Assembly (NCBI GenBank): GCA_046723735.1
Contig: JBKOVB010000114.1
Span: forward strand, 8,498-72,497
DNA from: Actinomycetota bacterium
GTDB taxonomy: Bacteria; Actinomycetota; Actinomycetes; Mycobacteriales; SCTD01
Length of the DNA stretch: 64,000 bases
Reading direction: 5' to 3'
Below the pieces are notes generated by a model. It was not told the origin of the DNA. It did not search any database and saw only the letters and a list, made by a program, of their open reading frames with translations. Position 1 is the stretch's first letter; each line of letters opens with the position of its first letter. The position numbers and the translations under genes are program-made. Shown here in pieces: positions 26,814 to 63,446 of the stretch.

Positions 26814-26819
26814 GGCGCC

Positions 26820-32218: not shown

Positions 32219-32224
32219 CCGGGC

Positions 32225-35344: not shown

Positions 35345-35350
35345 CCGCTC

Positions 35351-36091: not shown

Positions 36092-36230
36092 CGTCCTTCT
36101 GGCGGGGGACGTCTCGCCTGTCCGCAGATCTCGTCCTTTCGTGCCATTGTCCGCCCTCGTCCCGGCTCAGAGGCTGAGCGTGTCGCGTGGGACACGTCGT
36201 GCTCGGGCACGGCGCGAACGGAGGAGACCG

Positions 36231-41943: not shown

Positions 41944-41956
41944 CTGCCGCACTCCG

Positions 41957-42008
41957 TGATCATGGGAGCCGTGGCTACCCCTGGGTGGTCCGGGGGTGCC
42001 CATGATCA
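41957..42008 (+). repeat. Perfect 10-bp inverted repeat TGATCATGGG ... CCCATGATCA
   Basis: The arms lie at 41957-41966 and 41999-42008 with a 32-nt spacer, between the secreted-protein stop and the uvrB promoter. Confidence 0.5.
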
Positions 42009-45570: not shown

Positions 45571-45662
45571 CAGCCTCCTGCGTTCGTCCTAGTCCTCTTG
45601 CAGGCTCTGCCCGAGGTGGTGCCGATGTCACGGTGGGCGAGAGCCACGTCACGGGAGGGCCG

Positions 45663-46694: not shown

Positions 46695-48088
46695 CCGTGC
46701 TCCTGCAGGCCGCCAAGCCCCCGCCCCCCGCCCCTCCCGACGCGCGGCGCTCGCCGGCGTGGCCGCTGGTGCTTGTCCCCCTGCTCGTCGTCCCCCTCGG
46801 CTGCCTTGCGTTGCTCGTGTGGCTGCCCGAGATGGGCGGGGTGCGCCTCGCCAGCGCGGTGTTCCTCCTGGTCGCCGTGCTCGTCCTGCTCGTGCGGCCG
46901 CGAGGCCTTCTGTCAGCACGCACGTGGGTGGTCGGCTACCTCGTCCTGCAGTTCCCCGTCCGCGCGCTGTTCCTGCTCACCGCTCCCAAGGAGAGACCGC
47001 CCATCTACGCCGAGGTGTCGCCCGGCGTGGGTCTCGAGCCGGCGTTGGTCACGGCCCTGCTCGAGTCGATCTTGGGCCTGGCGGTGCTCGGGGCCGTCTA
47101 CGTCCTGGGGCACCAGTACTGGCGCCCGCCGACTCGTCCGTCGATGCACGTGGCGCTGCGGTGGCAGAGGGCGTACCTGCTGCTGCTCGTCGGGGCGTTC
47201 ATGCTGCCGATCGAGCTCACCGCCGGCAGCGGCTCGAGCGGTGCGTTCATCATCAGCCTCCCTGGGCTCGCGGCCTCGGGGGCGGCCGCGGTCGTCTGCT
47301 TCGCCTTCGTGCAGTCACCCGGCCGCTGGTGGCCGATCTTCCTGCTCGCGGTCGCCTACACCGCGGCCAGGGTCACCCTGCTCTCGTCGAAGATGGCGCT
47401 GCTCGCGGGCCTGCTCGCCGCGGTCCTCAGCCTGGTCGGCCGGCTGCAGCGGCGACGGGGACGGCTGCCGGTCGTGCGCGGCACGATCGTGGTGCTCGTC
47501 TGCCTGGCCACGGCGTCGTACATCTTCGCCGTGGGCAGCGGCCGCAGCCACGGGCGTGGCGTCGCCGACTCGGTCGGGCAAGGGGCGCAGGCCGCGGTGT
47601 CCCGCAGCTACGGGGTGGACGCCGTGGTGGCCACGAACGAGCACCTCGCCAGGGGGGCGCGGCCGTTGTACGGCCAGAGCTTCGTCGAGATCGTCTACTC
47701 CTGGGTGCCACGCGCGTTCTGGCCGGACAAGCCGAGGTCGTTCTCCATCCGGTACGGCGAGGACGTGTTCTCCTTCACCCAGGGCGTCGGCCGGGAGTTC
47801 TTCGCGCCCAGCTACTCCGGGGAGTGGCTGCTGAACTTCGGGGTGCCCGGGCTCGTCCTGGGCTGGATGTTGTTCGGCCTTGCGCTGGCCCGGGTGGACG
47901 CGCTCGCCTCGATACCCCACCGGATGCTGTGGCTCGCGTCGCTGGTGCACCTCGTCGAGGGGTCGGTGGTGGCCCAGTTCTGGTTGGCGGCGCCGTTCAT
48001 CGTGGGCGGGTACTGGGTGCTGCGCCGTGACGCAGTCGTCCCGGACGCCCTGCGGCTGGCGCCGGTGCCGCTGGAGGCGACCGCTTAG
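46691..48088 (+). CDS. Wzy-like oligosaccharide repeat-unit polymerase / O-antigen-ligase-like membrane protein
   Basis: The ATG overlaps the GT2 stop (ATGA). It has about 10-12 TM helices and one larger loop. There are no catalytic motifs I can name, so the call rests on architecture and context. Confidence 0.55.
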   Translation: MTVLLQAAKPPPPAPPDARRSPAWPLVLVPLLVVPLGCLALLVWLPEMGGVRLASAVFLLVAVLVLLVRPRGLLSARTWVVGYLVLQFPVRALFLLTAPKERPPIYAEVSPGVGLEPALVTALLESILGLAVLGAVYVLGHQYWRPPTRPSMHVALRWQRAYLLLLVGAFMLPIELTAGSGSSGAFIISLPGLAASGAAAVVCFAFVQSPGRWWPIFLLAVAYTAARVTLLSSKMALLAGLLAAVLSLVGRLQRRRGRLPVVRGTIVVLVCLATASYIFAVGSGRSHGRGVADSVGQGAQAAVSRSYGVDAVVATNEHLARGARPLYGQSFVEIVYSWVPRAFWPDKPRSFSIRYGEDVFSFTQGVGREFFAPSYSGEWLLNFGVPGLVLGWMLFGLALARVDALASIPHRMLWLASLVHLVEGSVVAQFWLAAPFIVGGYWVLRRDAVVPDALRLAPVPLEATA

Positions 48089-49350
48089 AGCGTCTCGACG
48101 TTGTCGCCTTTCATGCGGTTCCGCGCGTCGAAGACGTAACGGGCGTGCGCCGTGACGAGGTCGTAGTCGAAGCAGTCGTGGTCGGTCACGAGGACCACGG
48201 CGTCTGCGGCCCGCACCTCGTCCACGGTGAGGTCGACCCGCGTCACGTGCGACGGCACCTGCGCGTCGTGCAGGTGCGGGTCGCAGGCGCGCACCTCGGC
48301 CCCCAGCGCCCGCAGCCGCTCGGCGACGACCGCCCCCGGTGCCTCGCGCGCGTCACCCGTGTTCCTCTTGTACGACAGGCCGAGGAGCAGGACCCGTGCC
48401 CCGTTCAGCGCCTGCTGGCGCCGGTTGAGGCCGAGCATGACGCGGCGCACCACGTGGTCGGGCATGTGGTCGTTGACGTCGTTGGCGAGCTCCACGAACC
48501 GGAACGGGTGGCCGAGGCTCTGGCGCACGCTCCACGACAGGTAGCTCGGGTCGATGGGCAGGCAGTGGCCCCCGACCCCCGGACCAGGGGTGAACGGCAT
48601 GAAGCCGAAGGGCTTCGTCGCCGCGGCCTCGATCGCGGCCCAGATGTCGATCCGGAGGTCCGCCGCGAACATGGCCAGCTCGTTGACCAGCGCGATGTTC
48701 ACGTGCCGGAACGTGTTCTCCAGCAGCTTGGCGAGCTCCGCCTCGCGGGTCGACGGGACGGCCACGGTGCGGCTGACGATGCGTTCGTAGAACGCGCGCA
48801 CACGCTCGAGCGACAGGTGGTCGATCCCTGAGATGATCTTCGGCGTGTTCTCGAGGCGCCACGTCGTGTTCCCCGGGTCGATCCGCTCGGGGCTGTAGCC
48901 GAGGTAGAAGTCGGTCCCCGCGCGCAGCCCGCTGCCGTCCTCGAGGATCGGCCCCACGACCTCCTCCGTCGTGCCGGGGTACGTCGTGGACTCCAGCACC
49001 ACCAGGGCTCCGGGTCGCAGGTAGGGCGCCAGCGTGCGGGTGGCGTGCTCCACGAACGACAGGTCGGGGGCGCCATCCGCGAGCGGGGTGGGCACGGTGA
49101 CCACGGCGGTGTCGAAGTCCGCGCACACCTGCGCGTCGTTCCCGGCGACGAGGCGCCCCGTGGCCAGGCAGGCGGCCAGCACCTCGTCGGGGATGTCCTC
49201 GACGTAGGAACACCCGGCGTTCAGGGCGTCGACCCGCGACTGCTGCACCTCGTAGCCGCCGACGAGGAACCCCGCCTGCGTGGCGCGTACGGCGAGGGGC
49301 AGACCCACGTAGCCGAGGCCGACCACGACGACCTTCTGGGGAGCTGTCAC
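48085..49350 (-). CDS. Nucleotide-sugar 6-dehydrogenase (UDP-N-acetyl-hexosamine dehydrogenase WecC/WbpA/TviB-like)
   Basis: N-terminal Rossmann VVVVGLGYVGLPLA, catalytic GGHCLPIDPSYL and the ELANDVNDHMP motif typical of the HexNAc-dehydrogenase branch. GTGA overlap with the upstream GT4. Confidence 0.85.
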   Translation of the reverse strand: MTAPQKVVVVGLGYVGLPLAVRATQAGFLVGGYEVQQSRVDALNAGCSYVEDIPDEVLAACLATGRLVAGNDAQVCADFDTAVVTVPTPLADGAPDLSFVEHATRTLAPYLRPGALVVLESTTYPGTTEEVVGPILEDGSGLRAGTDFYLGYSPERIDPGNTTWRLENTPKIISGIDHLSLERVRAFYERIVSRTVAVPSTREAELAKLLENTFRHVNIALVNELAMFAADLRIDIWAAIEAAATKPFGFMPFTPGPGVGGHCLPIDPSYLSWSVRQSLGHPFRFVELANDVNDHMPDHVVRRVMLGLNRRQQALNGARVLLLGLSYKRNTGDAREAPGAVVAERLRALGAEVRACDPHLHDAQVPSHVTRVDLTVDEVRAADAVVLVTDHDCFDYDLVTAHARYVFDARNRMKGDNVETL

Positions 49351-50414
49351 ATCCGGCCTCCCGCCAGATCGGGCCACTGCCAGTCGGGGTGCTCGCCTGT
49401 CGCCAGGGCCAGCACCCGGCGGCGCCAGGCCGGCAACGCGAACTCCTCTGCAAACTTCGTCGTGTCCGCGCGGGCGGTGTCGCTCACGTGCAGCCGCCAG
49501 GCTGCCTCCGCCACCGCGCCGGGCGTGGCCCCGGCGGCCAGGAGCACGCCGGTGCGCCCGTCCACGATGCTGAAGCCGCTCCCGCCGCACTCGAGCACGA
49601 CGGCGGGGCACCCGTGGGTCGCCGCCTCGAGCACCACCAGGCCCAGACCCTCGAACTCGCCCGCTTCAGTGCGGGGCAGGAACAGCAGCACGTCCGCGTC
49701 GGCGTACAGCCGCTGCTTCACCTCCTCCGGCACACCGCCGTGGATGGCGACCTTGAGCCCCGGCCGCGTGACGCCTGCGGCCCGGGCGCACAGCCGTGCC
49801 AGGTCTGGACCGGGTCCGACGACGTCGAGCCTTGTGGGGATGCTGGTCGCCAGCTCCCGTGCCGCCTCGATCGCCAGGTCGTGCCCCTTGCGAGGGACCG
49901 CGCGGCCGACCGACAGCAGTCGCACCTCGCCGTCCGGACGGGAGCGGCTCGTGACGCCGCGCGCAGGGGAGATGGGAGGGCCGACCAGCTCCGCCCGCGG
50001 GCGCAGGTCCGGCGGCAGCAGCTGCACCGCCAGCGGGCTGACGGCGAGCAAGGCTGCGGCCTCGTGGAGGATCCGGTCCCGTGCCCGTCGCTGGAGGGAC
50101 CCGGCATCGCGCGTCAGCTCCGCGCCGTGCAGCCAGAGCAGGCCCTCCTTCAGCACGCCGGGATGCCGCACCCCTACGAGGGTGTGCGTCTTCCACGTGA
50201 GCGACATCCAGGAGCCGTGCGGCCGCGGGGAGCGCACGACGCCCCCCAGCCCGACGTGCAGCCTCGCCGGGCCTCCCGCGTCCATGAGTGCGGCATGAAC
50301 CTGCCGGGCCACGCCCTCCACGCCCCCGATGTACGCGGACGGGCTGAACACCTGCACCGGGGCCCGCTGAGTGCCAACGGTGGCGTGCACGTGGCGTGGG
50401 GCCGTCGACGTCAC
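49347..50414 (-). CDS. Glycosyltransferase family 4 (GT-B)
   Basis: IGGVEGVARQV near the N-terminus and EGLGLVVLEAATHGCPAVV...GVLL (E-x7-E). There are GTGA overlaps at both ends. Confidence 0.8.
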   Translation of the reverse strand: MTSTAPRHVHATVGTQRAPVQVFSPSAYIGGVEGVARQVHAALMDAGGPARLHVGLGGVVRSPRPHGSWMSLTWKTHTLVGVRHPGVLKEGLLWLHGAELTRDAGSLQRRARDRILHEAAALLAVSPLAVQLLPPDLRPRAELVGPPISPARGVTSRSRPDGEVRLLSVGRAVPRKGHDLAIEAARELATSIPTRLDVVGPGPDLARLCARAAGVTRPGLKVAIHGGVPEEVKQRLYADADVLLFLPRTEAGEFEGLGLVVLEAATHGCPAVVLECGGSGFSIVDGRTGVLLAAGATPGAVAEAAWRLHVSDTARADTTKFAEEFALPAWRRRVLALATGEHPDWQWPDLAGGRM

Positions 50415-51178
50415 TCGTGCACCCTGGTCGCCACCGCGGCCATCGCCCACGAGGGGTGGAGCCCACAGCGGTGCAGCTCGAAGGCGGAGTCGCCCGGGAG
50501 CACGCGACCGGGCAGCGCGCTCGCCGCGCTGCGGTAGCCGGCCTCGGCGACCAGCTCCAGGTCGCGCGGCGTGTAGTCGACGCCCGGGAGCCCGTAGGGC
50601 AACGAGAAGTCCAGGATCGGCATGCCGAGGCGTGCCTCGAGCTCTGCCTTCGAGTCCCGCACCTCCTGGCGGGCAGTGCGCAGGTCCAGGGCGGCAAGGC
50701 GGGCGTGCGTGAGGCTGTGGGAGCCGAGGTGCATGCCATGGTCGGCCAGCCGCGTGCAGTCGCTCCAGGTGAGCTTGTCCTTGCTCTTGCCGGCCACCAC
50801 CTGGCCGGTGGTGATGAAGAACGACGCCGGCACGTTGAGCTCCTGCAGCAGCGACAGAACCTCGCCCACCCACTCCTTGTGGCCGTCGTCAAAGGTGAGG
50901 CAGAAGCGTGGACCACCGAGCGGGTCGTGCGAGGTGGTCGAGTCGAGCGTCTCGTCCCACGTGACGAACCGTCCACGGTCGAGCATCGCCTGGATCTGCC
51001 GCCGCAGGCCTGACGGGTCGTCCACGCCGTGGTACAGAAGGACGAAGATGCCTCCCGTGGTCTCGGGCAGCCGATGCCGCAGCCCGGCAGGGGCGAGGAT
51101 GAACGACTGGAGGCGTGGTCGGGCCCGCAACCAGGCCCGGGTGCGCGGGAGAGCTCCACCCGCGAGGTACGCATTCAT
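50411..51178 (-). CDS. Polysaccharide deacetylase (NodB / CE4 family)
   Basis: LTFDDGH (metal/catalytic motif 1), HSLTH (motif 2) and LPYG. I prefer the ATG at 51178 because the upstream 90 nt of the ORF have poor codon bias and an ATA codon. Confidence 0.8.
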   Translation of the reverse strand: MNAYLAGGALPRTRAWLRARPRLQSFILAPAGLRHRLPETTGGIFVLLYHGVDDPSGLRRQIQAMLDRGRFVTWDETLDSTTSHDPLGGPRFCLTFDDGHKEWVGEVLSLLQELNVPASFFITTGQVVAGKSKDKLTWSDCTRLADHGMHLGSHSLTHARLAALDLRTARQEVRDSKAELEARLGMPILDFSLPYGLPGVDYTPRDLELVAEAGYRSAASALPGRVLPGDSAFELHRCGLHPSWAMAAVATRVHE

Positions 51179-51353
51179 GAACGGATGCTTACCGGGGGAG
51201 GCGATCCGCGGAGCCTGCACGCGAACTAGTGCTCGTTGAGCCGGGTCCCGTACCGCCGCGTGTATCACGGGGGCGAACCGTGCGCTCTTGTCGAGAGCCG
51301 CATGCTTCGGCGCGCGTCACAGACGGTTGCTTTTGGTTCGCGAGAGGGACGAC

Positions 51354-52061
51354 ATGGCGCCTGATGCCGAGGTCCGCATGATCCGGCGACATGCCCCGCT
51401 CGTCGTGGCGTGCCTCGTGGCAGGGGCGTTGACGGCCGCTCTGCTCTCGGCGCGCACGCCGCGTGAGTACCAGTCCGATGTCGGCCTGTTCGTGTCCGCC
51501 ACACGCTCCGCCACCTCGGGCGGGGTCTACGACCGGGCGCGCTTCGCCCAGGAGCGTGTGAAGTCCTACGTCCCGCTCGTGACGAGCCCGTCGGTGATGA
51601 GCGCGGTGATCAAGGACCTCGAGCTCGGCACCACACCGGAGCGGCTGGCCCAGCAGCTCTCGGTCACGGCGTCGCCCGACACCGTCCTGCTCCGCATCGT
51701 CGCGACTGATCGCTCAGCGGCCACCGCCCGCGACATCGCCAACGCGACGGCGGAGGAGTTCGCGCACTTCGCGGTGGCGCTTGAGGGGCGGGACGGGTCC
51801 GTGCCGTCGGTTCAGCTGCGGATCACCAAGCCGGCCGAGCTCAACCGCACCCCCGTACGCCCCCGCACCGCGTACAACCTGGCCCTGGGCGTGTTCTTCG
51901 GCCTCCTCATGGGGCTCGGCCTTGCCGCGCTGCGAGAGCGGTGGAGCCCGACCCCTGCGACCACACCCGAGCCGCAGGACGAGCCGGCGGCAAGCGCCTG
52001 GCCGCCCCACTCCGTCATCGAGCCGCACGTGGCTCGCCGAGCGTCCCACCGGCCGAGCTGA
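51354..52061 (+). CDS. Wzz-like polysaccharide co-polymerase (chain-length determinant), no kinase domain
   Basis: N-terminal TM (LVVACLVAGALTAALL), a Wzz-like segment (YQSDVGLFVS...VLLRIVATDRSAATARDIANATAEEF) and a C-terminal TM (LALGVFFGLLMGLGLAAL). Confidence 0.65.
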   Translation: MAPDAEVRMIRRHAPLVVACLVAGALTAALLSARTPREYQSDVGLFVSATRSATSGGVYDRARFAQERVKSYVPLVTSPSVMSAVIKDLELGTTPERLAQQLSVTASPDTVLLRIVATDRSAATARDIANATAEEFAHFAVALEGRDGSVPSVQLRITKPAELNRTPVRPRTAYNLALGVFFGLLMGLGLAALRERWSPTPATTPEPQDEPAASAWPPHSVIEPHVARRASHRPS

Positions 52062-52103
52062 CCAGCCGGGGTCGACCAGCCGTCGACGGATCGAAGGAGG
52101 ACC

Positions 52104-53090
52104 ATGGGGCAGACGGCCGGAAGAGTGCTGGTGGTCGGCCCCTCGAAGGTCGGCGACATGGCGTGGTTCCTCGCCCTGGCCTACCGACGGCTGGGATGGC
52201 AGGTCTCGTTGCTCGACGACCGGGCATACGTCAGCCGAGGGATCCCGGGAACCGTCGGCAAGGCGCTCTGGATCCTCGAACGGGACCACCGCATCACCCA
52301 CCGTACGCGCAGCCTCGGTGAGATCCTGCGGCGACGGGCGCGCGGGTGCGACCACGTGATCACGGTGAAGGGCGAGTACTTCAACCCGGAGGACGTCGCC
52401 GCGGTTTCCGCCTCCGTGCCGTTCGTGAACTGGCACCCGGACCACCCGGTGCTGGACCAGGCGTACGTCTGCATCCCGCACTACACCGCTTTCTGCCCGA
52501 AGGACAGCTGGAGCACGCAACGGCTGCGGGCCATGGGGTTTCTCAACGTCACGACCCTGCCGCACGCCTCTGACCCGCAGGTGCTCTACGGCCGTCGCGA
52601 GGAGCCGGCGGAGCCGTCCTGCTCCGTGGTCGCTGGCATGTACCCCTACCGGCGGCACTGGGTGGAGCAGGCGCGCGCCCTCGGCCTGCGTGTCGAGATG
52701 TGGGGCAGCACGTTGGGTGAGGAGCTGCCTGCTGTGACGGCCCGGGCCAAGCAGGCCGTCGGGCCGGAACAGGGCAGGGCGCTGCGGACCGGCTGCTTCA
52801 CGTTGAACACGCACGCACCCAAGGACGTGGCGGGCGGCAACCAGCGGGTCTTCGACGCCGCCGCCGCGGGTGCACCCCAGCTCACCGAGCGCCTTCCCGA
52901 GAGCCTGCGGCACTTCGAGCCGGACACGGAGATCGCGGTCTTCGAGGACCGTGAAGAGTTCGAGAGCCAGGTGAAGGAGCTTGTGGCGAGCCCCGCGCTG
53001 CGGGACCGCCTCGCCCGCAACAGCCACGAACGGCTGCGCGCGGAGCACACCTACGAGCACCGCATACACACCATCCTCGGCCTGCTGTGA
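52104..53090 (+). CDS. CgeB-family glycosyltransferase-like protein
   Basis: A GAAGGAGGA SD is present. The C-terminal region (NQRVFDAAAAGAPQLTE...EIAVFEDREEFESQVKELVASPALRDRLARNSHERLRAEHTYEHRI) is typical of CgeB/Glyco_trans_1_2 proteins. Confidence 0.6.
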   Translation: MGQTAGRVLVVGPSKVGDMAWFLALAYRRLGWQVSLLDDRAYVSRGIPGTVGKALWILERDHRITHRTRSLGEILRRRARGCDHVITVKGEYFNPEDVAAVSASVPFVNWHPDHPVLDQAYVCIPHYTAFCPKDSWSTQRLRAMGFLNVTTLPHASDPQVLYGRREEPAEPSCSVVAGMYPYRRHWVEQARALGLRVEMWGSTLGEELPAVTARAKQAVGPEQGRALRTGCFTLNTHAPKDVAGGNQRVFDAAAAGAPQLTERLPESLRHFEPDTEIAVFEDREEFESQVKELVASPALRDRLARNSHERLRAEHTYEHRIHTILGLL

Positions 53091-53094
53091 GCGG

Positions 53095-54207
53095 GTGCCC
53101 GTCGCCGTGCTGACCTGGGAACGTCTGTCCCTCGACGACGTCGACTGGGCGCGCCTGGACGCGCTGCCCGACCGCGTGCTCTTCCAGACACGTGCATGGC
53201 TCGAGTTCCTGGCGGACACCCAGGGGGGCGAACCGGTCGTCGCGGTGCTGCGTGACGGCCAGGAGGAACGCGGCTGGTTCACCGGCCTCGTCACCTCGCG
53301 CCTGGGCATGCGTCTGCTCGGGGCGCCGCTGCCCGGCTGGACGACCCAGTACATGGGTTTCAACCTGCTGCCGGGCAGCTCGCGAGGCGAAGCGCTGGCG
53401 GGGCTGGCCCGGTTCGCCTTCGGCGACCTGCGGTGCGTCCATGCGGAGGTGTGCGACCGGTACGCCGGGCCGGCGGACCTCCAGCCGCTGGCGGGCCCCT
53501 GCGACGAAATCCTGACGTACTCCGTGGACCTCCGGCCGGAGGAGGACGAGATCCGCAGGCGCATGACGAGTGGCACGCGACAGAACATGCGCAAGGCGGA
53601 ACGGGTCGGGCTCACGGTGGAGGATGCCGAGCCCGAGGGCTTCGCGGCCGAGTACTACGCGCAGCTCGAGGACGTCTTCGCCAAGCAGCGGCTCGTCCCG
53701 ACGTACTCGCAGCAGCGGGTCGAGGCGCTCATCCGCCACGTCCACCCGACGGGCAACCTGCAGCTGATCCGGGTGCGGGCGGCGGACGGGACCTCGATCG
53801 CCACCGCGCTGGTCGCGGGTCTGGGTCCGGCTGCGTACTTCTGGGGCGGGGCGAGCTGGCGGCAGCACCAGCACCTGCGGCCCAACGAGCTGCTCTTCTG
53901 GCACGCCTTCACGACCTGGAAGGCTCGCGGCGCCGAGGAGTTCGACTTCGGCGGCGGCGGCGACTACAAGCGCAAGTACGGCGCGTGCGAGCTTGTCGTG
54001 CCGCACGCCCGGCTGTCGCGGTGGCGGGTGCTCGAGCACCTCCGTGACGCCGCCAAGCACGCGGTCAAGGTGCGGCAGCAGGCAGCAGGCGCGGTACGCC
54101 GGGCGGTCGGCCCGGGGGCTCCGGACGCGCCAAGGCGGCGCGACCGGGAGGTCACGCCGCCTTGGCGTCGTTCAGGTGCGGGGGAGGGTCAGCGACCGCC
54201 CTCGTAA
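53095..54207 (+). CDS. FemAB-like / GNAT-fold (Acetyltransf_6) aminoacyl- or peptidyl-transferase-like protein
   Basis: FQTRAWLEFL at the N-terminus, then RQNMRKAERVGL and YFWGGASWRQHQHLRPNELLFWHAFTTWKARGAEEFDFGG, as in FemX/CelD-like proteins. It starts 4 nt after the CgeB-like stop. Confidence 0.6.
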   Translation: MPVAVLTWERLSLDDVDWARLDALPDRVLFQTRAWLEFLADTQGGEPVVAVLRDGQEERGWFTGLVTSRLGMRLLGAPLPGWTTQYMGFNLLPGSSRGEALAGLARFAFGDLRCVHAEVCDRYAGPADLQPLAGPCDEILTYSVDLRPEEDEIRRRMTSGTRQNMRKAERVGLTVEDAEPEGFAAEYYAQLEDVFAKQRLVPTYSQQRVEALIRHVHPTGNLQLIRVRAADGTSIATALVAGLGPAAYFWGGASWRQHQHLRPNELLFWHAFTTWKARGAEEFDFGGGGDYKRKYGACELVVPHARLSRWRVLEHLRDAAKHAVKVRQQAAGAVRRAVGPGAPDAPRRRDREVTPPWRRSGAGEGQRPPS

Positions 54208-55895
54208 GCACCGATGTCGAACGTCGAACCCTGCGGACGACCCACGAGGTCGAGGTCGTACGAAGGAGCCTGCTGGCTCGTGCCCTTGTCGATCACCGGG
54301 CTCGTCGTCTTGACGTGGTAGTCGCCGCCCGAGTAGTTGACGAACTGCGGGTCTGCCGTCACGGTGCCGGTCGGGACGCCGCCGCCGCTGAGCGAGTAGG
54401 CGCCAGAGGCGTTGCCGTAGAGCAGGTTGTTGGCGTAGGTGTTCACGCCGACCCGGCCCATCTCACGGATGCCCCAGTAGCCGTTGTTGACCACGACGTT
54501 GTTCGTCACGACGGTGCCCGAGTCGATGCCCGGCGCGATGTCGTTGCCCTCCAGCGAGCCACCGATCACCATGCCGCCCTGCGTGTTGCGGAAGACGGTG
54601 TTGTTGGCGATGTACACGTGGTTCGCGTTGTGCCAGAGGTGGATGCCCCAGCCGCTCGTGTCGTAGACGAGGTTGTTGAGGATCCGACCGCCGTACGGGC
54701 CCTGGTAGTAGATGCCGTGGATGAGACCGCAGCTGCTCACCGGAGCCTTGATGTTGTGGATGACGTTGCCGATCGAGTCGACGTTGGTCTCCGAGTAGTT
54801 CTGCAGCTCGATGCCGGCACCACCGCGCGAGCAGTCCGGCGGAGCCATGTCGTGGATGTGGTTGCCCAGGAAGCGGTCGTTGGAGGCCGTCGACATGATG
54901 CCGCTGTACTTCGAGCCGGTGATGTCGAAGTTCTGGATCACGACCCACTGGCCGGTGTTGGTCCAGGCGTTGGTGCTGCCCGGCGCGTAGATCTTCGCAC
55001 CCCACTTGCTGTCGGAGACGAAGGTGATCGGAGCGCTCTGTGTGCCGCTGTTGACGGACTCGACGTACCCGTAGGTGCCGGGCCCGACATGCACGATGGT
55101 GCCGGCGGTGGCCACGCTGGCCGCCTTGCTGACCTGACGGAACGGCGCGCTGCTCGTGCCGGGGTTGCTGTCGCTGCCGGAAGCCGAGACGTACAGGTTC
55201 TTCGTCCCGACGAGCGGCCACGGGTCGGTGCTCGTCGGCGCGCTCGGTGACGTGGTCGGGCTCGCGGAGGGCGACGGCGACGCGGTCGGGCTGGTGGTCG
55301 GGCTGGCCGTGGGGCTCGCCGTCGGGCTGCTCGTGGGCGTGCTGCTCCCCTTGCGGGCCACGACCTCGATGCCCTTCACCATCGCGTTGTTGACGCTGGC
55401 GCTGAAGCCCAGGTCGACGTTGCTGTCGCCGGACTTCACCGTGAAGGTCACGTCGTACGCCGTGTCGGCGCCGACCACCTTCACCAGGTCGAGGTTGGAC
55501 ACGACCGTGTTGCCCTCGGCCGTGGCGGAGAAGACGCGCTGGCCGGCCGTGGTCGCCCACGTCTCGGCCATCCGCAGCGTGACGTCGTAGAAGCCCGCGG
55601 CAGGGACCGGGATCTTGTAGCCGGACATGCCGTAGCGCTCGGTGGCGTAGGCCGTGGGGTTGTCCGTGTTGGCGATCGTGTGCGTGTTCGCCGCCGCGGC
55701 ACCACCGATGAAGTACTGGTCGGCGATCCACGTCTGGCCGGACGGGTCGGTGTAGCCGGCACCGCCGGCGTTGATGTGGACGCTCCAGGGCGTCGTGGTG
55801 GCCGCGTTGGCCAGGGTCAAGGGGAGGGCGGCCGCTGCCGCCGCGAGAGCCACCGGGAGGGCGACCAGAGCGGTTTTCTTCTTGGTGCACCGCAT
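54189..55895 (-). CDS. Secreted malectin-like carbohydrate-binding domain, Pro/Thr/Ser linker and right-handed beta-helix (polysaccharide lyase/hydrolase-like)
   Basis: Signal peptide (ALPLTLANA), a malectin-like region (INAGGAGYTDPSGQTWIADQYF), a PT/S linker and beta-helix repeats rich in N/G/I/V (NNTVFRN, TNNVVVNN). An AGGAGA SD is present. Confidence 0.7.
   Translation of the reverse strand: MRCTKKKTALVALPVALAAAAAALPLTLANAATTTPWSVHINAGGAGYTDPSGQTWIADQYFIGGAAAANTHTIANTDNPTAYATERYGMSGYKIPVPAAGFYDVTLRMAETWATTAGQRVFSATAEGNTVVSNLDLVKVVGADTAYDVTFTVKSGDSNVDLGFSASVNNAMVKGIEVVARKGSSTPTSSPTASPTASPTTSPTASPSPSASPTTSPSAPTSTDPWPLVGTKNLYVSASGSDSNPGTSSAPFRQVSKAASVATAGTIVHVGPGTYGYVESVNSGTQSAPITFVSDSKWGAKIYAPGSTNAWTNTGQWVVIQNFDITGSKYSGIMSTASNDRFLGNHIHDMAPPDCSRGGAGIELQNYSETNVDSIGNVIHNIKAPVSSCGLIHGIYYQGPYGGRILNNLVYDTSGWGIHLWHNANHVYIANNTVFRNTQGGMVIGGSLEGNDIAPGIDSGTVVTNNVVVNNGYWGIREMGRVGVNTYANNLLYGNASGAYSLSGGGVPTGTVTADPQFVNYSGGDYHVKTTSPVIDKGTSQQAPSYDLDLVGRPQGSTFDIGAYEGGR
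55224..55349 (-). repeat. Low-complexity tandem coding repeat (S/T-P-T-A-S-P linker)
   Basis: It encodes SSTPTSSPTASPTASPTTSPTASPSPSASPTTSPSAPTS. The DNA shows reiterated GGTCGGGCT-like units. Confidence 0.8.
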
Positions 55896-55969
55896 GGCGA
55901 AGCTGTCTCCTGAGGGGGGTCGGAGCTATGACCCCCTGTGCTTCGACCAGGTCCCGGAAGCGCTTGACT

Positions 55970-55978
55970 ACGTATCAG
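55970..55978 (-). promoter_or_regulatory. Copy 2 of the recurring 9-mer CTGATACGT (minus strand)
   Basis: The plus strand reads ACGTATCAG. It lies 75 nt upstream of the ATG (55895) of the malectin/beta-helix gene and is oriented toward it. Confidence 0.4.
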
Positions 55979-56066
55979 GAGTGGCACGTCACACTGCGTT
56001 GTCAGGTCGCCCCGGCGCATGCGCGTTCGTCCCAAATACAGTTGCGCGCAAGGGGATGAAGCGGCC

Positions 56067-57305
56067 TCAGCCGTCAACGGCGCTTGCGCGCTTCGTCCCC
56101 TCTGCGACGTCGGCGGCCGTTGCCGGTCGAGTCCGACGTAGCAGGACGTAGCCGACGACGGCGGCCAGCCCCTCGGCGGCGAGCAGGACGACCGGCATCA
56201 CCCAGGAGCGCGCCACAGCGAGCCCCGTCACGGCCGCGCCGATCACCAGGACGGGTGCAAGCATGTTCACGACGATGCGCTGCTTGTCCCGGTACCCGAC
56301 GATGAGGCCGATCTCGACCACGTACTTGGGCCCCCACACCGCGAGCAGCAGGGCACCGAGCGCGGCGTATCCGGCTGCCCCCGTGTAGCTGGGACCGACC
56401 AGCGGCGCGAGCACCGGTTGCCACAGCAGCACCCCTGCACCCACGCCGAGGAGGCCGGGCAGCGACGCGCCGAGCACGACCCGCCCCGACATGGGACGGG
56501 CCCGGGCGAGCAACGGGGGGAGGGCGTTCTGCAGGAGCAGCCACAACGCGTTCGCGGCGGCGGCGGCGGCCCGCATGCCGAGGGCGAACGCACCCGCCGC
56601 CTGCGTGCTGCCGGTGCTGGTCATCGTCGCGAGCGCAAGAGGTACGGCGACCTGTCCCCCGACCCCGGCTGCCCCGAACAGCAGAGAGGTCTGCAGGTGA
56701 CCTTTCCAGGCGCGCCAGGAAGCCACCCAGCGAGGAACTCCGCTCGTCCGGCTCAGGACCAGCATCGCCACCGCCGCGCCCGCGAGCGGCGAGAGCCCGA
56801 AGGCGAGCGCGTAGACCACGGGCTCGGACGGCGGGACGACCACCCACACCGTGAGGCAGCACAGGACGACGGCCCAGTTCGCCGCGCCGAGCTGCACGAG
56901 CTGCCCCCGTGCGCGCAGCCACCAGTCGGGGAACACGGCGTACGCGACGAGGTAGGGGCTCATCGCCAGCAGGAGCCTGCCGTTCTGGGTCGAGCCGGCT
57001 CCGGTGACCAGGAGCAGCAGGACCAGCACGGCGCTCACCGCGACCGCGAGTGCGAGGTACAGGCTGAAGATCTCGCTGCCCAGCCGGCGCTGCTCGGAGC
57101 CGGCGCTCGCTGCGAGGGTCCTGATCGAGTAGCCGGCCTGTCCGAGGTCGACAGCCCACCAGGCGTAGCCGATCCAGCTCAGGGCTACCGCGAAGTACGC
57201 GAACGAGGAGGCGCCGAGCTTGCGCGCGACGAGGACGACGGCCAGGAAGGCGACGAGCTTGGGCAGCCAGTCGGAGACCACCGTCAGCAGCAAGGTCCGG
57301 CGCAA
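56067..57305 (-). CDS. Wzx-type (MOP superfamily) polysaccharide flippase
   Basis: About 12 TM helices with a polysaccharide-biosynthesis-protein N-terminus (LVAFLAVVLVARKLGASSFAYFAVALSW). The proposed TTG start at 57305 has a GAGGA SD 4 nt upstream, but the start is uncertain. Confidence 0.65.
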   Translation of the reverse strand: MRRTLLLTVVSDWLPKLVAFLAVVLVARKLGASSFAYFAVALSWIGYAWWAVDLGQAGYSIRTLAASAGSEQRRLGSEIFSLYLALAVAVSAVLVLLLLVTGAGSTQNGRLLLAMSPYLVAYAVFPDWWLRARGQLVQLGAANWAVVLCCLTVWVVVPPSEPVVYALAFGLSPLAGAAVAMLVLSRTSGVPRWVASWRAWKGHLQTSLLFGAAGVGGQVAVPLALATMTSTGSTQAAGAFALGMRAAAAAANALWLLLQNALPPLLARARPMSGRVVLGASLPGLLGVGAGVLLWQPVLAPLVGPSYTGAAGYAALGALLLAVWGPKYVVEIGLIVGYRDKQRIVVNMLAPVLVIGAAVTGLAVARSWVMPVVLLAAEGLAAVVGYVLLRRTRPATAADVAEGTKRASAVDG

Positions 57306-57360
57306 CGGTTCCTCAGCTCCCTCGGGGGCGTCGTACGAAGAGGAATCCGGGTCGCGTCGC

Positions 57361-57369
57361 CTGATACGT
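57361..57369 (+). promoter_or_regulatory. Copy 3 of the recurring 9-mer CTGATACGT
   Basis: It lies in the divergent region between the Wzx gene and the ATP-grasp gene, 87 nt upstream of the ATP-grasp GTG. It shares the 10-mer CTGATACGTC with copy 1. Confidence 0.4.
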
Positions 57370-57455
57370 CCCCGGCTGAGCCATGTGTATCTATAGCGCG
57401 ACCAGGTGCTCTGCAGGTAAGCACGGCCCTGTTGCGCGGCCGGGAGAGGGGCGAG

Positions 57456-58640
57456 GTGAGCAGCGCTCCTGCCCTCCGGCGCCAACGGAGCAGGCCCGCG
57501 GAGCGGGTGCAACGTGCCCTGCTGCTCGGCGACAGCATGGACATGGCCCATGCGCTCTGGGCCGCCGGTGCGCTGACGACGGTCATCGGGGGCAAGCATG
57601 CCCCCGCCCGCTACTCCAGGCACGGTTTTGCCTGGCTTCCTGACCCGCGGCCCCGCGACGAGGACCTTGTCCGGATGCTTCGTGAGCTGGGGTCCACGAC
57701 CAGCCCGCCCGCCCTGTTCTACGAGACCGACCGCGACCTGCTGTTCGTGTCCCGCAACCGCGAGGCGCTGGGCGTCGGCCTCGCCATGCTGCTGCCACCT
57801 CCGGGTCTCGTGGAGCAGCTGGTCTCCAAGGGCGCCTTCGCCGCGCTTTCCCGACAGCTCGACCTCCCGGTCCCGCAGAGCTGGAGCGTGAACACGACGG
57901 AGTCGGACCCTCTGCCCGAGGGGCCCTACCCGTTGCTCGTGAAGCCGATGGTGCGTGACACGCGGTGGGACCTGGTGGCCCGTGGCAAGGCCGTCGTCGT
58001 CCAGCGGCCGAAGGAACTTGCCCGGCTCATCGAGTCCCTCGCCGAGACCCACGCCGAGGTCGTCGTGCAGGCCTACGTTCCGGGCGAGGAGACCAGGGTC
58101 GAGAGCTACCACGTGTACGTCGACAGCGACGGCGAGGTCGCGGCGGAGTTCACCGGGTGCAAGATCCGGACGCTCCCGCTCGCGAACGGCTATTCCACCG
58201 CGCTGGTGACGACCTGCGAGACCGATGTCCGCGACGTCGGACGCTCCGTCGTAGACGCGCTCGGGCTCGTGGGGGTTGCCAAGCTCGACTTCAAGCGCGA
58301 CCCGCAGGGCAGGCTCTGGCTGCTGGAGGTGAACCCCCGCTTCAACCTATGGCACCACCTGGGCGCCGCGGCGGGTGTGAACATCCCGGCCTTCGTCCTG
58401 GCGGACCTGGCGCGCTCCGAGCGACCCGCTGCTGCCGTGGCCCGACCGGGTGTGTCGTGGTGCAACGTCCCCCGCGACCTCGTGGCCGCCCGGGCCAGCG
58501 GACTCGGGGTCGTCGAGTGGTGGCGCTGGGCGCGCACGTGCGAAGCGGTCACCGGGCTCGAGCTGACCGATCCGCTGCCCTTCTTCCTCGGCAAGCTGCT
58601 GCCATGGGGTGCCGCGCACCTCCACTGGTCGGGGTTCTGA
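57456..58640 (+). CDS. ATP-grasp domain protein (carboxylate-amine ligase-like)
   Basis: LLVKPMVRD...VVVQAYVPGEETRVESYHVYVD...AKLDFKRDPQGRLWLLEVNPRFNLWHHL, an ATP-grasp core with an E-x-N Mg site. The GTG start at 57456 is inferred. Confidence 0.75.
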   Translation: MSSAPALRRQRSRPAERVQRALLLGDSMDMAHALWAAGALTTVIGGKHAPARYSRHGFAWLPDPRPRDEDLVRMLRELGSTTSPPALFYETDRDLLFVSRNREALGVGLAMLLPPPGLVEQLVSKGAFAALSRQLDLPVPQSWSVNTTESDPLPEGPYPLLVKPMVRDTRWDLVARGKAVVVQRPKELARLIESLAETHAEVVVQAYVPGEETRVESYHVYVDSDGEVAAEFTGCKIRTLPLANGYSTALVTTCETDVRDVGRSVVDALGLVGVAKLDFKRDPQGRLWLLEVNPRFNLWHHLGAAAGVNIPAFVLADLARSERPAAAVARPGVSWCNVPRDLVAARASGLGVVEWWRWARTCEAVTGLELTDPLPFFLGKLLPWGAAHLHWSGF

Positions 58641-58642
58641 CC

Positions 58643-59446
58643 ATGCGCTACGCCGTCCTGTCCGACGTCCACGCCAACCTGACCGCGCTCACCGCCGTTC
58701 TCGAGGCGCTCGACGACGTGGACGCCTACCTGTGCACGGGGGACCTCGTCGGGTACGGCCCGAGCCCCAACGAGTGCGTCGAGCTCCTGGCGGCCATCGG
58801 GGCGGTCTGCGTGGCCGGCAACCATGACCTCATCGCGGTGGGCGCGCTGGACGAGACGCAATCGGGTCTGCTGGCGCGGCAGACCCTCGCCTGGACGCGC
58901 CGCGTCATGACCCCTGCCGCCAGGGCCTACTTGCAGGCGCTGCCCCGGACGACCACCGTGGCCGAGCTGCTGCTGGCTCACGGCTCCCCGGAGGACCCTG
59001 AGGAGTACGTCCTCCGGCCGGAGCGGGCCGTCGAGATCCTCGCGAAGGTCGAGGACCCGCAGGTGACCACGGTCCTGCTGGGGCACACCCACCATCAGTG
59101 GGTCGTCGGGGCGGCGGAAGGCGTGCTGCTGCACCGGCGCACGGGCCGGGTCGACCTGGTGCAGGGCCAGCGGTACCTCCTCAACGCGGGCAGTGTCGGG
59201 CAGTCACGGGACGGCGACGCGCTGGCCCGCTTCCTGGTGCTGGACACGACGGAGCGCACGGCCGAGATGAAGGCGGTCGAGTACGACGTGCGCGCCTCCA
59301 GCGCGGCGCTGCGCGCGGCGGGACTCCCCGTGCGTGCTCTGCACGCCACCGACCACTCGCCGCGCGAGCTCGCTCTCGGCGCCCGGCGCCGGCTCCGGCG
59401 GGCGACCGAGCGCTGGACCGGGCGCCCCCTGCGGCCTCGCGTCTGA
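58643..59446 (+). CDS. Metallophosphoesterase (YfcE/MJ0936-like)
   Basis: SDVHAN, GDLVGYGP, GNHD and GHTH motifs appear in the canonical order. It starts 2 nt after the ATP-grasp stop. Confidence 0.85.
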   Translation: MRYAVLSDVHANLTALTAVLEALDDVDAYLCTGDLVGYGPSPNECVELLAAIGAVCVAGNHDLIAVGALDETQSGLLARQTLAWTRRVMTPAARAYLQALPRTTTVAELLLAHGSPEDPEEYVLRPERAVEILAKVEDPQVTTVLLGHTHHQWVVGAAEGVLLHRRTGRVDLVQGQRYLLNAGSVGQSRDGDALARFLVLDTTERTAEMKAVEYDVRASSAALRAAGLPVRALHATDHSPRELALGARRRLRRATERWTGRPLRPRV

Positions 59447-59500: not shown

Positions 59501-59555
59501 CAGGTGCTCGCTACCCTGTGTGCTCCTTTTGTGTCCCCGATCGACAGGAGCGCCG

Positions 59556-62624: not shown

Positions 62625-62629
62625 GCGCT

Positions 62630-62671
62630 GCCGTCCGGACCGGAGTCGTGTTGCGCCCCGGTCCGGACGGC
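62630..62671. terminator. Perfect 14-bp-stem hairpin between convergent genes (bidirectional terminator candidate)
   Basis: GCCGTCCGGACCGG, a 14-nt loop, then CCGGTCCGGACGGC. It begins 6 nt after the 62624 stop and lies 38 nt from the 62709 stop. Confidence 0.6.
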
Positions 62672-62708
62672 GTCGGTGGGGCGTGGGGCGACTCCCGTCC
62701 TCGACGGG

Positions 62709-63338: not shown

Positions 63339-63446
63339 GGGAGTCCTCTCGAGCAGCGGGCCAACCAGTATCACCCGGCGGGTGAGCTCCCTCTCCTTGC
63401 CCCCTCCGGGGCGGCGGGTGAAGGCTCCGGCGTGGGGGGTGGTCTC

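Follow-up and report, generated by a model that had tools for sequence, protein, structure and literature searches.

The window, meaning the whole 64,000-nt stretch of DNA that was analysed, has 72% G+C and is actinobacterial. Genes were called via third-position GC, and their products were compared with Pfam, NCBIfam and the sequences of the PDB. All the genes on which the initial annotation built its proposal are present where it had placed them, which confirms the observation itself. They are enclosed in a glycan locus of the Wzx/Wzy type that spans 45.6-63.5 kb (Table 1), and two related MAGs keep the entire locus in synteny. The tandem LuxR/GerE pair at the locus edge, candidate regulators, holds the same position in a syntenic Frankiales MAG locus (L001), where the GT2 gene is also kept. 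The Wzy-like polymerase has no match in the Pfam scan and a weak one to TIGR04370 (26 bits vs a cut-off of 40). The chain-length protein lacks a kinase domain; its Wzz and GNVR matches lie under the cut-offs, and TIGR01006 matches at 1.7e-14. The CgeB-like glycosyltransferase gene stops 4 nt 5' of the Fem-like gene, and its counterparts in L007 and L008 (73-80% identity) adjoin a Fem-like gene too. The malectin/beta-helix protein is probably a glycan-processing hydrolase or lyase, and beta-helix genes recur in related loci. In L007, the second GT4 has a counterpart of 82% identity, and the locus tail (60827..63458) is syntenic at 82-89% identity. The window contains no initiating phosphoglycosyl transferase.

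Table 1. Genes of the glycan locus and its edge (window positions), with the matches or features on which each assignment rests
Feature	Position	Strand	Basis
LuxR/GerE-type response regulators, two in tandem	44170-44901 + 44889-45521	-	Pfam Response_reg + GerE
GT2 glycosyltransferase	45633..46694	+	PF00535, 66 bits
Wzy-like repeat-unit polymerase, 465 aa	46691..48088	+	~10 TM segments; ten hydrophobic segments
NDP-sugar 6-dehydrogenase, UDP-HexNAc branch	48085..49377	-	three UDPG_MGDP_dh domains, all present
GT4 glycosyltransferase	49347..50450	-	PF00534, 74 bits
NodB-type polysaccharide deacetylase	50411..51178	-	Polysacc_deac_1 PF01522, 72.5 bits
Wzz/PCP-like chain-length determinant	51327..52061	+	TM segments at residues 21 + 181
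CgeB-like glycosyltransferase (Glyco_trans_1_2)	52104..53090	+	PF13524, 93.7 bits
Fem-fold double-GNAT acyl/aminoacyl transferase, PF13480 (CelD/BcsL/HfsK) family	53095..54207	+	Acetyltransf_6, 59.8 bits
Malectin + right-handed beta-helix protein, secreted	54189..55895	-	PF11721, PF13229, PF22842; N-terminal hydrophobic segment
Wzx-type flippase	56067..57305	-	PF01943, 28.6 bits vs cut-off 28.2; at least 9 TM segments
ATP-grasp carboxylate-amine ligase, COG3919/PRK12767-like uncharacterised family	57456..58640	+	
Calcineurin-like metallophosphoesterase	58643..59446	+	PF12850 + PF00149
GT4 glycosyltransferase	59520..60833	+	PF00534 + PF13439
SAM methyltransferase (locus tail)	60827-61561	+	Pfam
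TPR-like protein, function not predicted (locus tail)	61548-62624	+	Pfam
Methyltransf_24 (locus tail)	62709-63458	-	Pfam

The deacetylase, one GT4 and the dehydrogenase are co-transcribed in that order, with the dehydrogenase gene last and the GT4 gene overlapping both of the others on the gene map. The dehydrogenase scores 395 bits against TIGR03026 (cut-off 190), and its motif GGHCLPIDP, at residue 269, contains the catalytic Cys. The closest solved relatives are UDP-ManNAcA dehydrogenase 4r16 (1e-68) and Cap5O (1e-55), whereas UDP-glucose dehydrogenases match at merely 1e-29 to 1e-39. Motif and relatives bear out the UDP-HexNAc branch proposed for this enzyme, which lies under all equivalog cut-offs (WecC, TviB, archaeal ManNAc dehydrogenase) and is thus placed to branch, not to an exact sugar. 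The locus very probably uses a HexNAc-uronic acid. The NodB deacetylase, likewise proposed from the start, has intact catalytic motifs (TFDD95, HSLTH154, PYG194) and, with neither signal peptide nor TM segment, is predicted to be cytoplasmic.

The Fem-like transferase, the ATP-grasp ligase and the phosphoesterase

Structure prediction and remote homology agree with the FemX fold suggested for the Fem-like protein. The top 11 Foldseek matches of its AlphaFold model (pLDDT 89) in the PDB are all aa-tRNA-dependent transferases (FemX, Sbb17/Sba18, FemA; E 6e-18 to 5e-11, TM 0.59-0.65), and acetyl-CoA tandem GNATs are clearly lower (E ~1e-9, TM 0.35-0.5), a likeness of double-GNAT architecture that says nothing of the identity of the acyl donor. 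The Sbb17/Sba18 structures among these matches were solved with a bound amino-sugar compound, streptothrisamine, and a sequence profile of the protein finds 6snr in the PDB at 2e-8. Residues Y291, K292 and G296 are invariant (Y291-K292 across 33 homologues), and the Tyr291-Lys292 dyad possibly occupies the place of the catalytic aromatic-Lys pair of Fem enzymes, equivalent to Lys305 in FemX_Wv and Phe328-Lys329 in DhpH-C. Judged by this dyad, the protein does not appear to be of a CelD type devoid of transferase residues, the outcome against which the initial annotation had warned. Its C-terminal helix (311-338) is basic, and it has no TM segment or signal peptide. A database protein of identical sequence (P0001) begins 4 codons further downstream than the called ORF.

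The double-GNAT fold, the basic C-terminal helix and, as the sequences suggest, the aromatic-Lys dyad are common to this protein and to FemX, FemA, FemB, Orf11, Sba18 and Sbb17. However, identity to these enzymes is 10-18%, PF02388 gives 14 bits against a cut-off of 24, and the S. aureus coiled-coil arm is missing. Their acceptor is a peptidoglycan stem or an antibiotic, whereas here it would be a glycan intermediate. Orf11 uses Gly-tRNA to aminoacylate the amino sugar of streptothrisamine (PMC12945691).

The model of the ATP-grasp protein (pLDDT 91) leads Foldseek to the generic ATP-grasp fold (TM ~0.6). The Mg/ATP motif LLEVNPR is intact, K163 is invariant, and TM segments and a signal peptide are absent. 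Even at E<=10 the protein does not match the TupA-like ATP-grasps (PF14305), the family of Cj1438C, which is the sole uronate amidoligase of glycans to have been characterised (PMC11800379). An identical protein in the database, P0121, has 377 aa, implying a start at 57507. The phosphoesterase ATG lies exactly 2 nt past the TGA of the ATP-grasp gene, the spacing first reported, and the two genes are translationally coupled. The phosphoesterase also has intact catalytic motifs (DVH8, GD33, GNHD59, HG113, GHTH147), and no signal peptide or TM segment is predicted. The label YfcE-like does not hold, as TIGR00040 gives 27 bits vs a cut-off of 56; among solved structures the closest is 3rqz (5e-35), itself uncharacterised, with ApaH/PrpE-like enzymes next.

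Recurrence of the cassette across phyla

Co-occurrence was counted over 80 genome loci of ATP-grasp relatives from four phyla, taking neighbours within 10 kb. A phosphoesterase gene is present in 51 of the 80 loci, directly downstream of the ATP-grasp gene in 49; of 47 gaps measured, 45 are <=15 nt, and in 21 cases the two genes overlap by 1 or 4 nt. Fem-like genes occur in 57/80 loci, at least one of the two partners in 72/80 and both in 36/80. Reverse look-ups from the phosphoesterase (n=2) found the ATP-grasp gene upstream both times, the surroundings being a glycan locus that included deacetylase and PF13480 genes, and GT4, deacetylase and Fem-like genes are grouped in L003, L005, L088, L089 and L090. 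ATP-grasp, phosphoesterase and Fem-like genes form a recurrent, widespread and unstudied cassette over four phyla, described here as new. This co-occurrence is directly established, as are the gene content, folds, catalytic motifs, cytoplasmic location and operon coupling at the window locus. It runs counter to the earlier statement that the activities rarely co-occur, since deacetylase, Fem-like, ATP-grasp and phosphoesterase genes are found together in many genomes. Within 10 kb of the ATP-grasp gene, a NodB deacetylase is found in only 16/80 loci and a sugar dehydrogenase in just 3/80.

Among the best 120 homologues, 8 have a PIG-L deacetylase fused to the ATP-grasp part; among the genome loci, such a fusion is seen in 3 and an adjacent PIG-L gene in 1 (Geodermatophilus). 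This fusion or adjacency points to a sugar amine, not a carboxyl, as the ATP-grasp partner, and its restriction to one genus suggests that it probably arose only once. The Fem-like/ATP-grasp/phosphoesterase trio of Azospirillum is found outside recognisable glycan loci, so the module is not always polysaccharide-acting.

Possible chemistry of the module

Related gene pairs are found in other EPS systems. The Caulobacter crescentus holdfast uses the deacetylase HfsH and HfsK, a PF13480 Fem-like N-acyltransferase (PMC5362036). As here, a cytoplasmic polysaccharide deacetylase and a soluble Fem-like GNAT belong to a Wzx/Wzy-type EPS pathway, but the holdfast has no ATP-grasp enzyme, metallophosphoesterase partner or HexNAc-uronic acid dehydrogenase, and HfsK binds c-di-GMP. 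A Fem-like GNAT and a NodB deacetylase also go together in XrtA/PEP-CTERM EPS loci. However, the window proteins score 30.5 vs a cut-off of 260 for TIGR03019 ('FemAB family') and 21.5 vs 276 for the deacetylase model TIGR03006, exosortase/PEP-CTERM context is absent from the window, and the organism is of Gram-positive type.

The three-gene module probably attaches groups resembling amino acids to amino sugars that have lost their acetyl group, and not necessarily to a sugar-acid carboxyl. The best explanation overall, which we hold with slightly less than even confidence, is a glycan with a de-N-acetylated HexNAc-uronate whose amine is given an amide-linked substituent by the conserved module before flipping. 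The substrates, step order and nature of the substituent that we infer are as follows. The 45.6-63.5 kb region would direct the synthesis of a heteropolysaccharide of the surface or cell wall by means of four glycosyltransferases, a flippase, a polymerase, a chain-length protein, two methyltransferases and a secreted processing enzyme with a beta-helix. Through the deacetylase-GT4-dehydrogenase sub-operon, UDP-HexNAc-uronic acid would be made and transferred and its N-acetyl group removed in the cytoplasm, so that an intermediate linked to a nucleotide or lipid has a free 2-amino group. On this amine, the accessory module would install a new amide-linked substituent ahead of flipping. The Fem-fold enzyme would move an aminoacyl group, the donor most likely being aminoacyl-tRNA (compare Orf11/Sba18 acting on an amino sugar), or alternatively a CoA- or ACP-borne acyl group. 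The ATP-grasp enzyme may form a second amide bond via an acyl-phosphate, either between a carboxylate and the sugar amine or as an extension of the first residue, and the metallophosphoesterase may strip a phosphate ester from one ligase substrate, by analogy with Cj1438C/Cj1435 and with the MshA2 step of mycothiol synthesis.

The initial annotation, an amino-acid-decorated aminouronic polymer, is thus partly supported: the glycan locus, the very probable HexNAc-uronic acid, the deacetylase and the FemX fold stand, and amidation of the uronate carboxyl by the ATP-grasp enzyme is weakened. Spelt out, that model would have the aminouronic acid amidated at both amine and carboxyl, with the Fem-like enzyme acting on the 2-amine, the ATP-grasp enzyme activating the C6 carboxylate for an amino compound, and the phosphoesterase then dephosphorylating the amine donor, which would be the phosphate of an aminoalcohol like that of C. 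jejuni. Such a double decoration is unlikely, and uronate-carboxyl amidation is a minority possibility beside the best reading, in which the exposed amine of the sugar carries the amide-linked decoration. A HexNAc-type 6-dehydrogenase is encoded in the window locus and its close relatives, the distant L006 has a dehydrogenase too, and in pseudomurein the peptide is attached to the N-acetyltalosaminuronic acid carboxyl. Moreover, exactly such carboxyl chemistry is performed by the sole biochemically proven glycan ligase/phosphatase pairing, that of the C. jejuni HS:2 capsule, in which Cj1438C joins serinol-P in amide linkage to the C6 carboxylate of GlcA, after which Cj1435 removes the phosphate from the product (PMC11800397). 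The window pair seems to share this logic, an ATP-dependent amide ligase on a glycan intermediate followed by a dedicated phosphatase for a substrate-borne phosphate, and the carboxyl reading is therefore only weakened. However, the C. jejuni enzymes are a TupA-like ATP-grasp and a HAD phosphatase, whereas those here are from another ATP-grasp family and the calcineurin-like superfamily. The uronate link is not conserved among relatives of the window ATP-grasp, the dehydrogenase being rare near them and absent from L087-L091; the PIG-L fusion indicates the amine, and the locus has no aminotransferase or decarboxylase for making an aminoalcohol phosphate.

Plain re-acylation is less probable again. 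The PF13480 protein would then be an HfsK-like N-acyltransferase with an acyl-CoA or acyl-ACP donor, tuning the charge of a partly de-N-acetylated polymer, and the ATP-grasp/phosphoesterase pair would supply or edit the donor or be unrelated. Family membership fits this, as do the proposed role of HfsK as acylator of HfsH-exposed amines (PMC5362036), the coupling of 'FemAB' and deacetylase models by NCBIfam in PEP-CTERM EPS, weakly matched here, and acyl-CoA dehydrogenase and AMP-ligase (+ACP) genes beside the module in L001/L007, L003 and L084. Yet the acyl-CoA dehydrogenase/AMP-ligase pair occurs in just 2/80 loci, the top structural matches are aa-tRNA-dependent, the aromatic-Lys dyad is invariant, and the near-obligate ATP-grasp/phosphoesterase coupling is left unexplained.

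The trio might also serve to make or modify a small molecule or peptidoglycan precursor, such as a mycothiol-like aminoacyl-glucosaminide, and its place in a polysaccharide locus would then be incidental. Mycothiol/bacillithiol synthesis employs MshA (GT4), MshA2 (phosphatase), MshB (PIG-L deacetylase, recalling the Geodermatophilus fusion), MshC (ligase) and MshD (tandem GNAT), and the GT4, phosphatase, deacetylase, ATP-dependent ligase and tandem GNAT here would mirror it step for step: glycosylation, dephosphorylation, de-N-acetylation, ATP-dependent amino-acid ligation to the GlcN amine and GNAT acylation. The likeness drawn is one of step order; the mycothiol ligase is aaRS-like rather than ATP-grasp, and the product is a small thiol, not a polymer. 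Although the Azospirillum trio is a stand-alone three-gene unit (neighbours: MFS transporter, Suv3 helicase, GST, 5'-nucleotidase, histidine kinase) and recognisable glycan genes lie near only 8/34 proteobacterial loci (a lower bound), a non-glycan role is very improbable here, since glycan genes lie near 20/27 actinobacterial loci, at least six Actinomycetota loci of differing layout (the window, L006, L087, L089, L090, L091) have the genes interspersed among those for Wzx, Wzy and glycosyltransferases, and the window Fem-like gene is closely joined to a glycosyltransferase gene.

Organization of the glycan locus

Bacterial surface glycans often carry amide-linked amino acids and unusual N-acyl groups, but to our knowledge few of the enzymes responsible have been identified. 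The locus described here points to a compact gene set consisting of a Fem-fold GNAT, an ATP-grasp protein and a translationally coupled metallophosphoesterase, usually accompanied by a deacetylase. Because the G+C content of the window (72%) swamps raw ORF lists with shadow ORFs, genes were called via third-position GC, and the domain content of the calls was established by Pfam and NCBIfam scans. A single coherent locus spans 44.2-63.5 kb, with the housekeeping genes polA, rpsA, coaE and uvrB directly upstream, and the same gene order occurs in the closest retrievable relatives, which are Frankiales/Mycobacteriales MAGs. Wzx-, Wzy- and Wzz-like genes are all present in the window, consistent with a Wzx/Wzy-dependent pathway. 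Domain scans of the window found no initiating phosphoglycosyl transferase; a Bac_transf gene is present in the related locus L090 (Pseudonocardia hydrocarbonoxydans). Rfam and tRNA scans of the region gave no matches. The tandem LuxR-type response regulators between uvrB and the glycan genes have no histidine kinase nearby; an equivalent pair holds the same position in a related MAG (L001), and they are likely the regulators of the locus. A second envelope-glycan region lies upstream (25483-37235), and its gene content suggests an arabinan-containing, mycolata-like envelope.

Features of the glycan locus and of regions upstream of it (window coordinates)
Feature	Position	Strand	Remarks
Polysacc_synt flippase-like gene	25483-26754		second in window
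AftD-like GT-C arabinofuranosyltransferase	26870-31039		PF11847, 815 bits
Acyl_transf_3 gene	30975-32165
Unknown ORF	32225-34000		591 aa
GT4	33997-35178		upstream region
Methyltransferase	35351-36091		upstream region
PorA/DUF3068 protein	36231-37235
497-aa ORF	40450-41943	+	GC3 0.94, no Pfam match, overlaps the 180-aa ORF (alternative call)
180-aa ORF	41421-41963	-	GC3 0.96
Two LuxR-type response regulators	44170-45521	-	Pfam/NCBIfam
GT2	45633-46694	+	Pfam/NCBIfam
Wzy-like protein	46691-48088	+	10 TM, family score below cut-off
NDP-sugar dehydrogenase	48085-49377	-	operon member
GT4	49347-50450	-	operon member
NodB deacetylase	50411-51178	-	operon member
Wzz-like protein	51327-52061	+	2 TM, Pfam/NCBIfam
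CgeB-like glycosyltransferase	52104-53090	+	Pfam/NCBIfam
Fem-like protein	53095-54207	+	PF13480 'Acetyltransf_6', 4 nt after CgeB-like glycosyltransferase
Secreted malectin/beta-helix protein	54189-55895	-	Pfam/NCBIfam
Wzx-like flippase	56067-57305	-	at least 9 TM, 28.6 vs cut-off 28.2
ATP-grasp protein	57456-58640	+	Pfam/NCBIfam
Calcineurin-like metallophosphoesterase	58643-59446	+	2 nt after ATP-grasp
GT4, methyltransferase, TPR-like protein, second methyltransferase	59520-63458

The ATP-grasp/phosphoesterase pair and the question of carboxyl amidation

The initial annotation proposed an aminouronic acid polymer amidated on both the amine and the carboxyl, and its assignments of the two sugar-modifying enzymes stand. 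The dehydrogenase (TIGR03026, 395 against a cut-off of 190) carries the catalytic Cys in GGHCLPIDP and is closer to UDP-ManNAcA dehydrogenase 4r16 (1e-68), Cap5O (1e-55) and NDP-GalNAcA dehydrogenase (8e-54) than to UDP-glucose dehydrogenases (1e-29 to 1e-39); as it scores under all equivalog cut-offs (275/750, 226/459 and 210/592), it is placed in the HexNAc branch and not with one sugar. The NodB (CE4) deacetylase (Pfam 72.5 bits) has the catalytic and metal-binding motifs TFDD95 and HSLTH154, and no export signal was found in it. The ends of the genes for the deacetylase, GT4 and dehydrogenase overlap in the minus-strand operon, and since the three are co-transcribed in the window and in close relatives, an aminouronic acid is a reasonable acceptor here.

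The ATP-grasp model (pLDDT 91) has the generic fold, with TM ~0.6 in Foldseek to 2pn1, PurK, L-amino-acid ligases, biotin carboxylases and PylC. The Mg/ATP motif LLEVNPR is intact, K163, E291 and N293 are invariant, and the only Pfam matches are ATPgrasp_Ter (28.8 against 29.1), Dala_Dala_lig_C and ATP-grasp_3. We know of no study of any of its relatives in the module. Many of the 120 best homologues bear the automated JGI name 'D-aspartate ligase', a name only and as such a lead; the E. faecium D-aspartate ligase Aslfm joins D-Asp to the epsilon-amine of Lys. A PIG-L deacetylase is fused to the ATP-grasp domain in 8 of these 120 homologues. A further apparent fusion, of ATP-grasp with PF13480 in the database protein P0221, was set aside, as the protein, from a 3.3-kb contig, starts inside the Fem-like part and the call may be a read-through.

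The phosphoesterase, correctly placed by the initial annotation right behind the ATP-grasp gene, has complete metal-binding motifs (DVH8, GD33, GNHD59, HG113 and GHTH147) and scores 65 bits with PF12850. Its former YfcE-like label does not hold (TIGR00040, 27 bits where 56 are required); among solved structures the uncharacterised 3rqz is closest, with ApaH/PrpE-like enzymes next. The 120 best homologues are all single-domain, so that fusions give no functional clue.

When one genome per species was scanned in a library of ~186,000 species genomes, 375 ATP-grasp relatives were found, and neighbours were counted around the best 80 of these, which belong to Actinomycetota, Gemmatimonadota, Acidobacteriota/Armatimonadota and Proteobacteria. 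Targeted phmmer/hmmsearch was used for the counts, all-against-all ORF clustering being dominated by high-GC shadow ORFs, and glycan genes nearby were recognized if they resembled proteins encoded in the window, which makes the counts of such glycan genes lower bounds. A phosphoesterase homologue is present in 51/80 loci, in 49 of them directly downstream of ATP-grasp on the same strand; the gap is at most 15 nt in 45 of the 47 measured cases, and in 21 of the 47 the genes overlap by 1 or 4 nt. PF13480 Fem-like genes, in two Pfam-confirmed subgroups, occur in 57/80 loci; 72 contain a phosphoesterase or a Fem-like gene and 36 contain both. Within 10 kb of ATP-grasp, a NodB deacetylase is found in 16/80 loci and a sugar dehydrogenase in 3/80. 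Look-ups starting from the phosphoesterase (n=2; L090 and L091) find ATP-grasp directly upstream in both, within glycan loci that have PF13480 genes plus deacetylase or amino-sugar genes. In further independent arrangements (L005, L006, L087-L089), GT4, deacetylase, ATP-grasp, phosphoesterase, Wzy and beta-helix genes occur together with one to three Fem-like genes. What is conserved is the ATP-grasp/phosphoesterase pair along with Fem-like transferases, a unit generally linked to de-N-acetylation and glycosyltransfer, and not to uronic-acid formation. PIG-L fusions were downgraded as general evidence, because among the 80 loci the fused (three) and adjacent (one) cases are all from Geodermatophilus.

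These counts bear on the dual amidation, in which the ATP-grasp protein acts on the uronate carboxyl. An enzyme of this kind exists: Cj1438C, of the TupA-like family, amidates capsular glucuronate of C. jejuni at its C6 carboxylate (PMC11800379, PMC11800397), and the HexNAc-type dehydrogenase of the window could furnish a uronate. The window ATP-grasp has no match to the Cj1438C family PF14305 even at E<=10, and a sugar dehydrogenase accompanies so few of its relatives that carboxyl amidation, as first proposed, is not upheld and dual amidation appears unlikely.

The Fem-like protein and possible amine acylation

The Fem-like protein belongs to PF13480 (CelD/BcsL/HfsK; 59.8 bits against a cut-off of 22) and does not reach membership of PF02388 (FemAB; 14 bits, E 0.022, cut-off 24), which has precomputed matches on some homologues with 51-55% identity. 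Its AlphaFold model (pLDDT 89; alignment of 33 homologues) shows the tandem double-GNAT architecture of FemABX enzymes, in which the substrate cleft separates the two domains. In Foldseek searches of the PDB, where rank speaks for architecture and not for donor chemistry, aminoacyl-tRNA-dependent transferases take all of the top 11 places (E 6e-18 to 5e-11, TM 0.59-0.65). S. aureus FemX is the best (E 6e-18, TM 0.65); Sbb17/Sba18 bound to the amino-sugar compound streptothrisamine reach E ~1e-15 with a target TM of 0.77-0.79, and W. viridescens FemX and S. aureus FemA are also among the 11. Acetyl-CoA tandem GNATs, MprF and N-myristoyltransferases rank lower (E ~1e-9, TM 0.35-0.5). The FemX-type fold, anticipated by the initial annotation, is thus confirmed by the predicted structure; sequence profiles against the PDB likewise retrieve FemX (2e-8) and Sba18 (0.014).

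Fem-type enzymes depend on one Lys (Lys305 in FemX_Wv; Lys329, after Phe328, in DhpH-C) and use a basic tRNA-binding helix, and Orf11 uses Gly-tRNA to attach glycine to the streptothrisamine amino sugar (review, PMC12945691). In the window protein, Y291-K292 and G296 (motif GGGGDYKRKYG) are invariant among the 33 homologues, and the C-terminal helix 311-338 is basic, with seven K/R and two D/E. As for the putative mapping of K292 onto FemX Lys305, HMM alignments of the profile to the PDB end at FDFGGG, and a 67-aa query across the Y291-K292 motif retrieves only spurious MHC chains.

Our literature search documented a single studied PF13480 member, the Caulobacter holdfast protein HfsK, which is proposed to acylate amines freed by the deacetylase HfsH (PMC5362036). 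A simple CoA- or ACP-dependent re-acylation would be compatible with this precedent; given the fold matches and the recurrent ATP-grasp partner, it seems distinctly unlikely for the window. Genes that might provide some lineages with another acyl donor do occur, as an acyl-CoA dehydrogenase and an AMP-dependent ligase flank the module in three unrelated genomes (L001:19213-21035; L003:1-3428, there with a carrier protein; L084:4811-7527). The two were rejected as conserved partners, since both are found in just 2/80 loci. L003 also encodes a glycine-producing serine hydroxymethyltransferase (10999-12270), convergent to three PF13480 genes and a deacetylase, a weak hint at glycine as donor in that organism.

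Proposed pathway and its reach

Neither TM segments nor signal peptides are present in the deacetylase, Fem-like protein, ATP-grasp protein or phosphoesterase, so that any chemistry would take place on nucleotide- or lipid-linked intermediates before flipping. Tentatively, we favour as most economical a pathway in which a HexNAc-uronic acid would be made and transferred, its N-acetyl group taken off, and the amine re-acylated with a new amide-linked group that the Fem-fold enzyme would assemble together with the ATP-grasp protein, all substrates being deduced; this is quite possible. The phosphoesterase would assist by stripping a phosphate borne by one ligase substrate. A ligase-then-phosphatase logic is proven for the C. 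jejuni capsule pair Cj1438C/Cj1435 and is proposed likewise here; the mycothiol pathway uses the same phosphate-removal logic. A non-glycan role of the cassette is improbable in view of the many glycan loci that carry it, even though no glycan locus surrounds the Azospirillum trio (L024, L084). In A. canadense (L024:8622-11985) and A. lipoferum Sp59b (L084:8712-12005), PF13480, ATP-grasp and metallophosphoesterase genes stand alone, next to genes for an MFS transporter, a Suv3-like helicase, a GST, a 5'-nucleotidase-like protein and a PAS histidine kinase.

The enzyme families are each known already, and the pairing of deacetylase and Fem-like protein has a published holdfast parallel; a parallel with Myxococcus ExoG/ExoI is not counted as evidence. 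A literature search found no published description of a deacetylase, a Fem-like protein, a COG3919-type ATP-grasp and a coupled metallophosphoesterase together. If the pathway is confirmed, tRNA-dependent aminoacylation would reach exopolysaccharides, beyond peptidoglycan and antibiotics, a function would be assigned to the PF13480 'CelD/BcsL/HfsK' family, and a second ligase/phosphatase decoration system would stand besides that of Campylobacter. Cultured carriers of the module are Pseudonocardia hydrocarbonoxydans, Geodermatophilus spp. and Azospirillum spp.

A broader and more doubtful reading sees the trio as a widespread machine that would furnish polysaccharides other than peptidoglycan with short peptide or aminoacyl side chains, attached to their de-N-acetylated amino sugars by amide bonds formed in both a tRNA-dependent and an ATP-dependent manner. 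Soil Actinomycetota, Gemmatimonadota, Acidobacteriota and Alphaproteobacteria would then make a 'peptido-glycan' other than murein, perhaps cross-linkable, and loci with up to three or four Fem-like paralogues, such as Geodermatophilus L087, would add successive residues as FemX, FemA and FemB do. L087:5148-12852 (Geodermatophilus sp. DSM 45219) holds three consecutive PF13480 paralogues, reminiscent of these stepwise additions; after them come an unknown protein of 479 aa, a PIG-L-ATP-grasp fusion and the phosphoesterase, and the group adjoins a GH18 gene and a deacetylase-GT2 (chitin-synthase-like) gene. No cytoplasmic phosphoesterase was found in the Gemmatimonadota (0/14 loci). In 13 loci that form one cluster, with Gemmatimonadales L019:11225-12694 as the representative, a secreted lipoprotein-like ORF lies ~1.3 kb downstream of ATP-grasp; as judged by eye, it has an Fn3-like region and a possible metallophosphatase-like motif.
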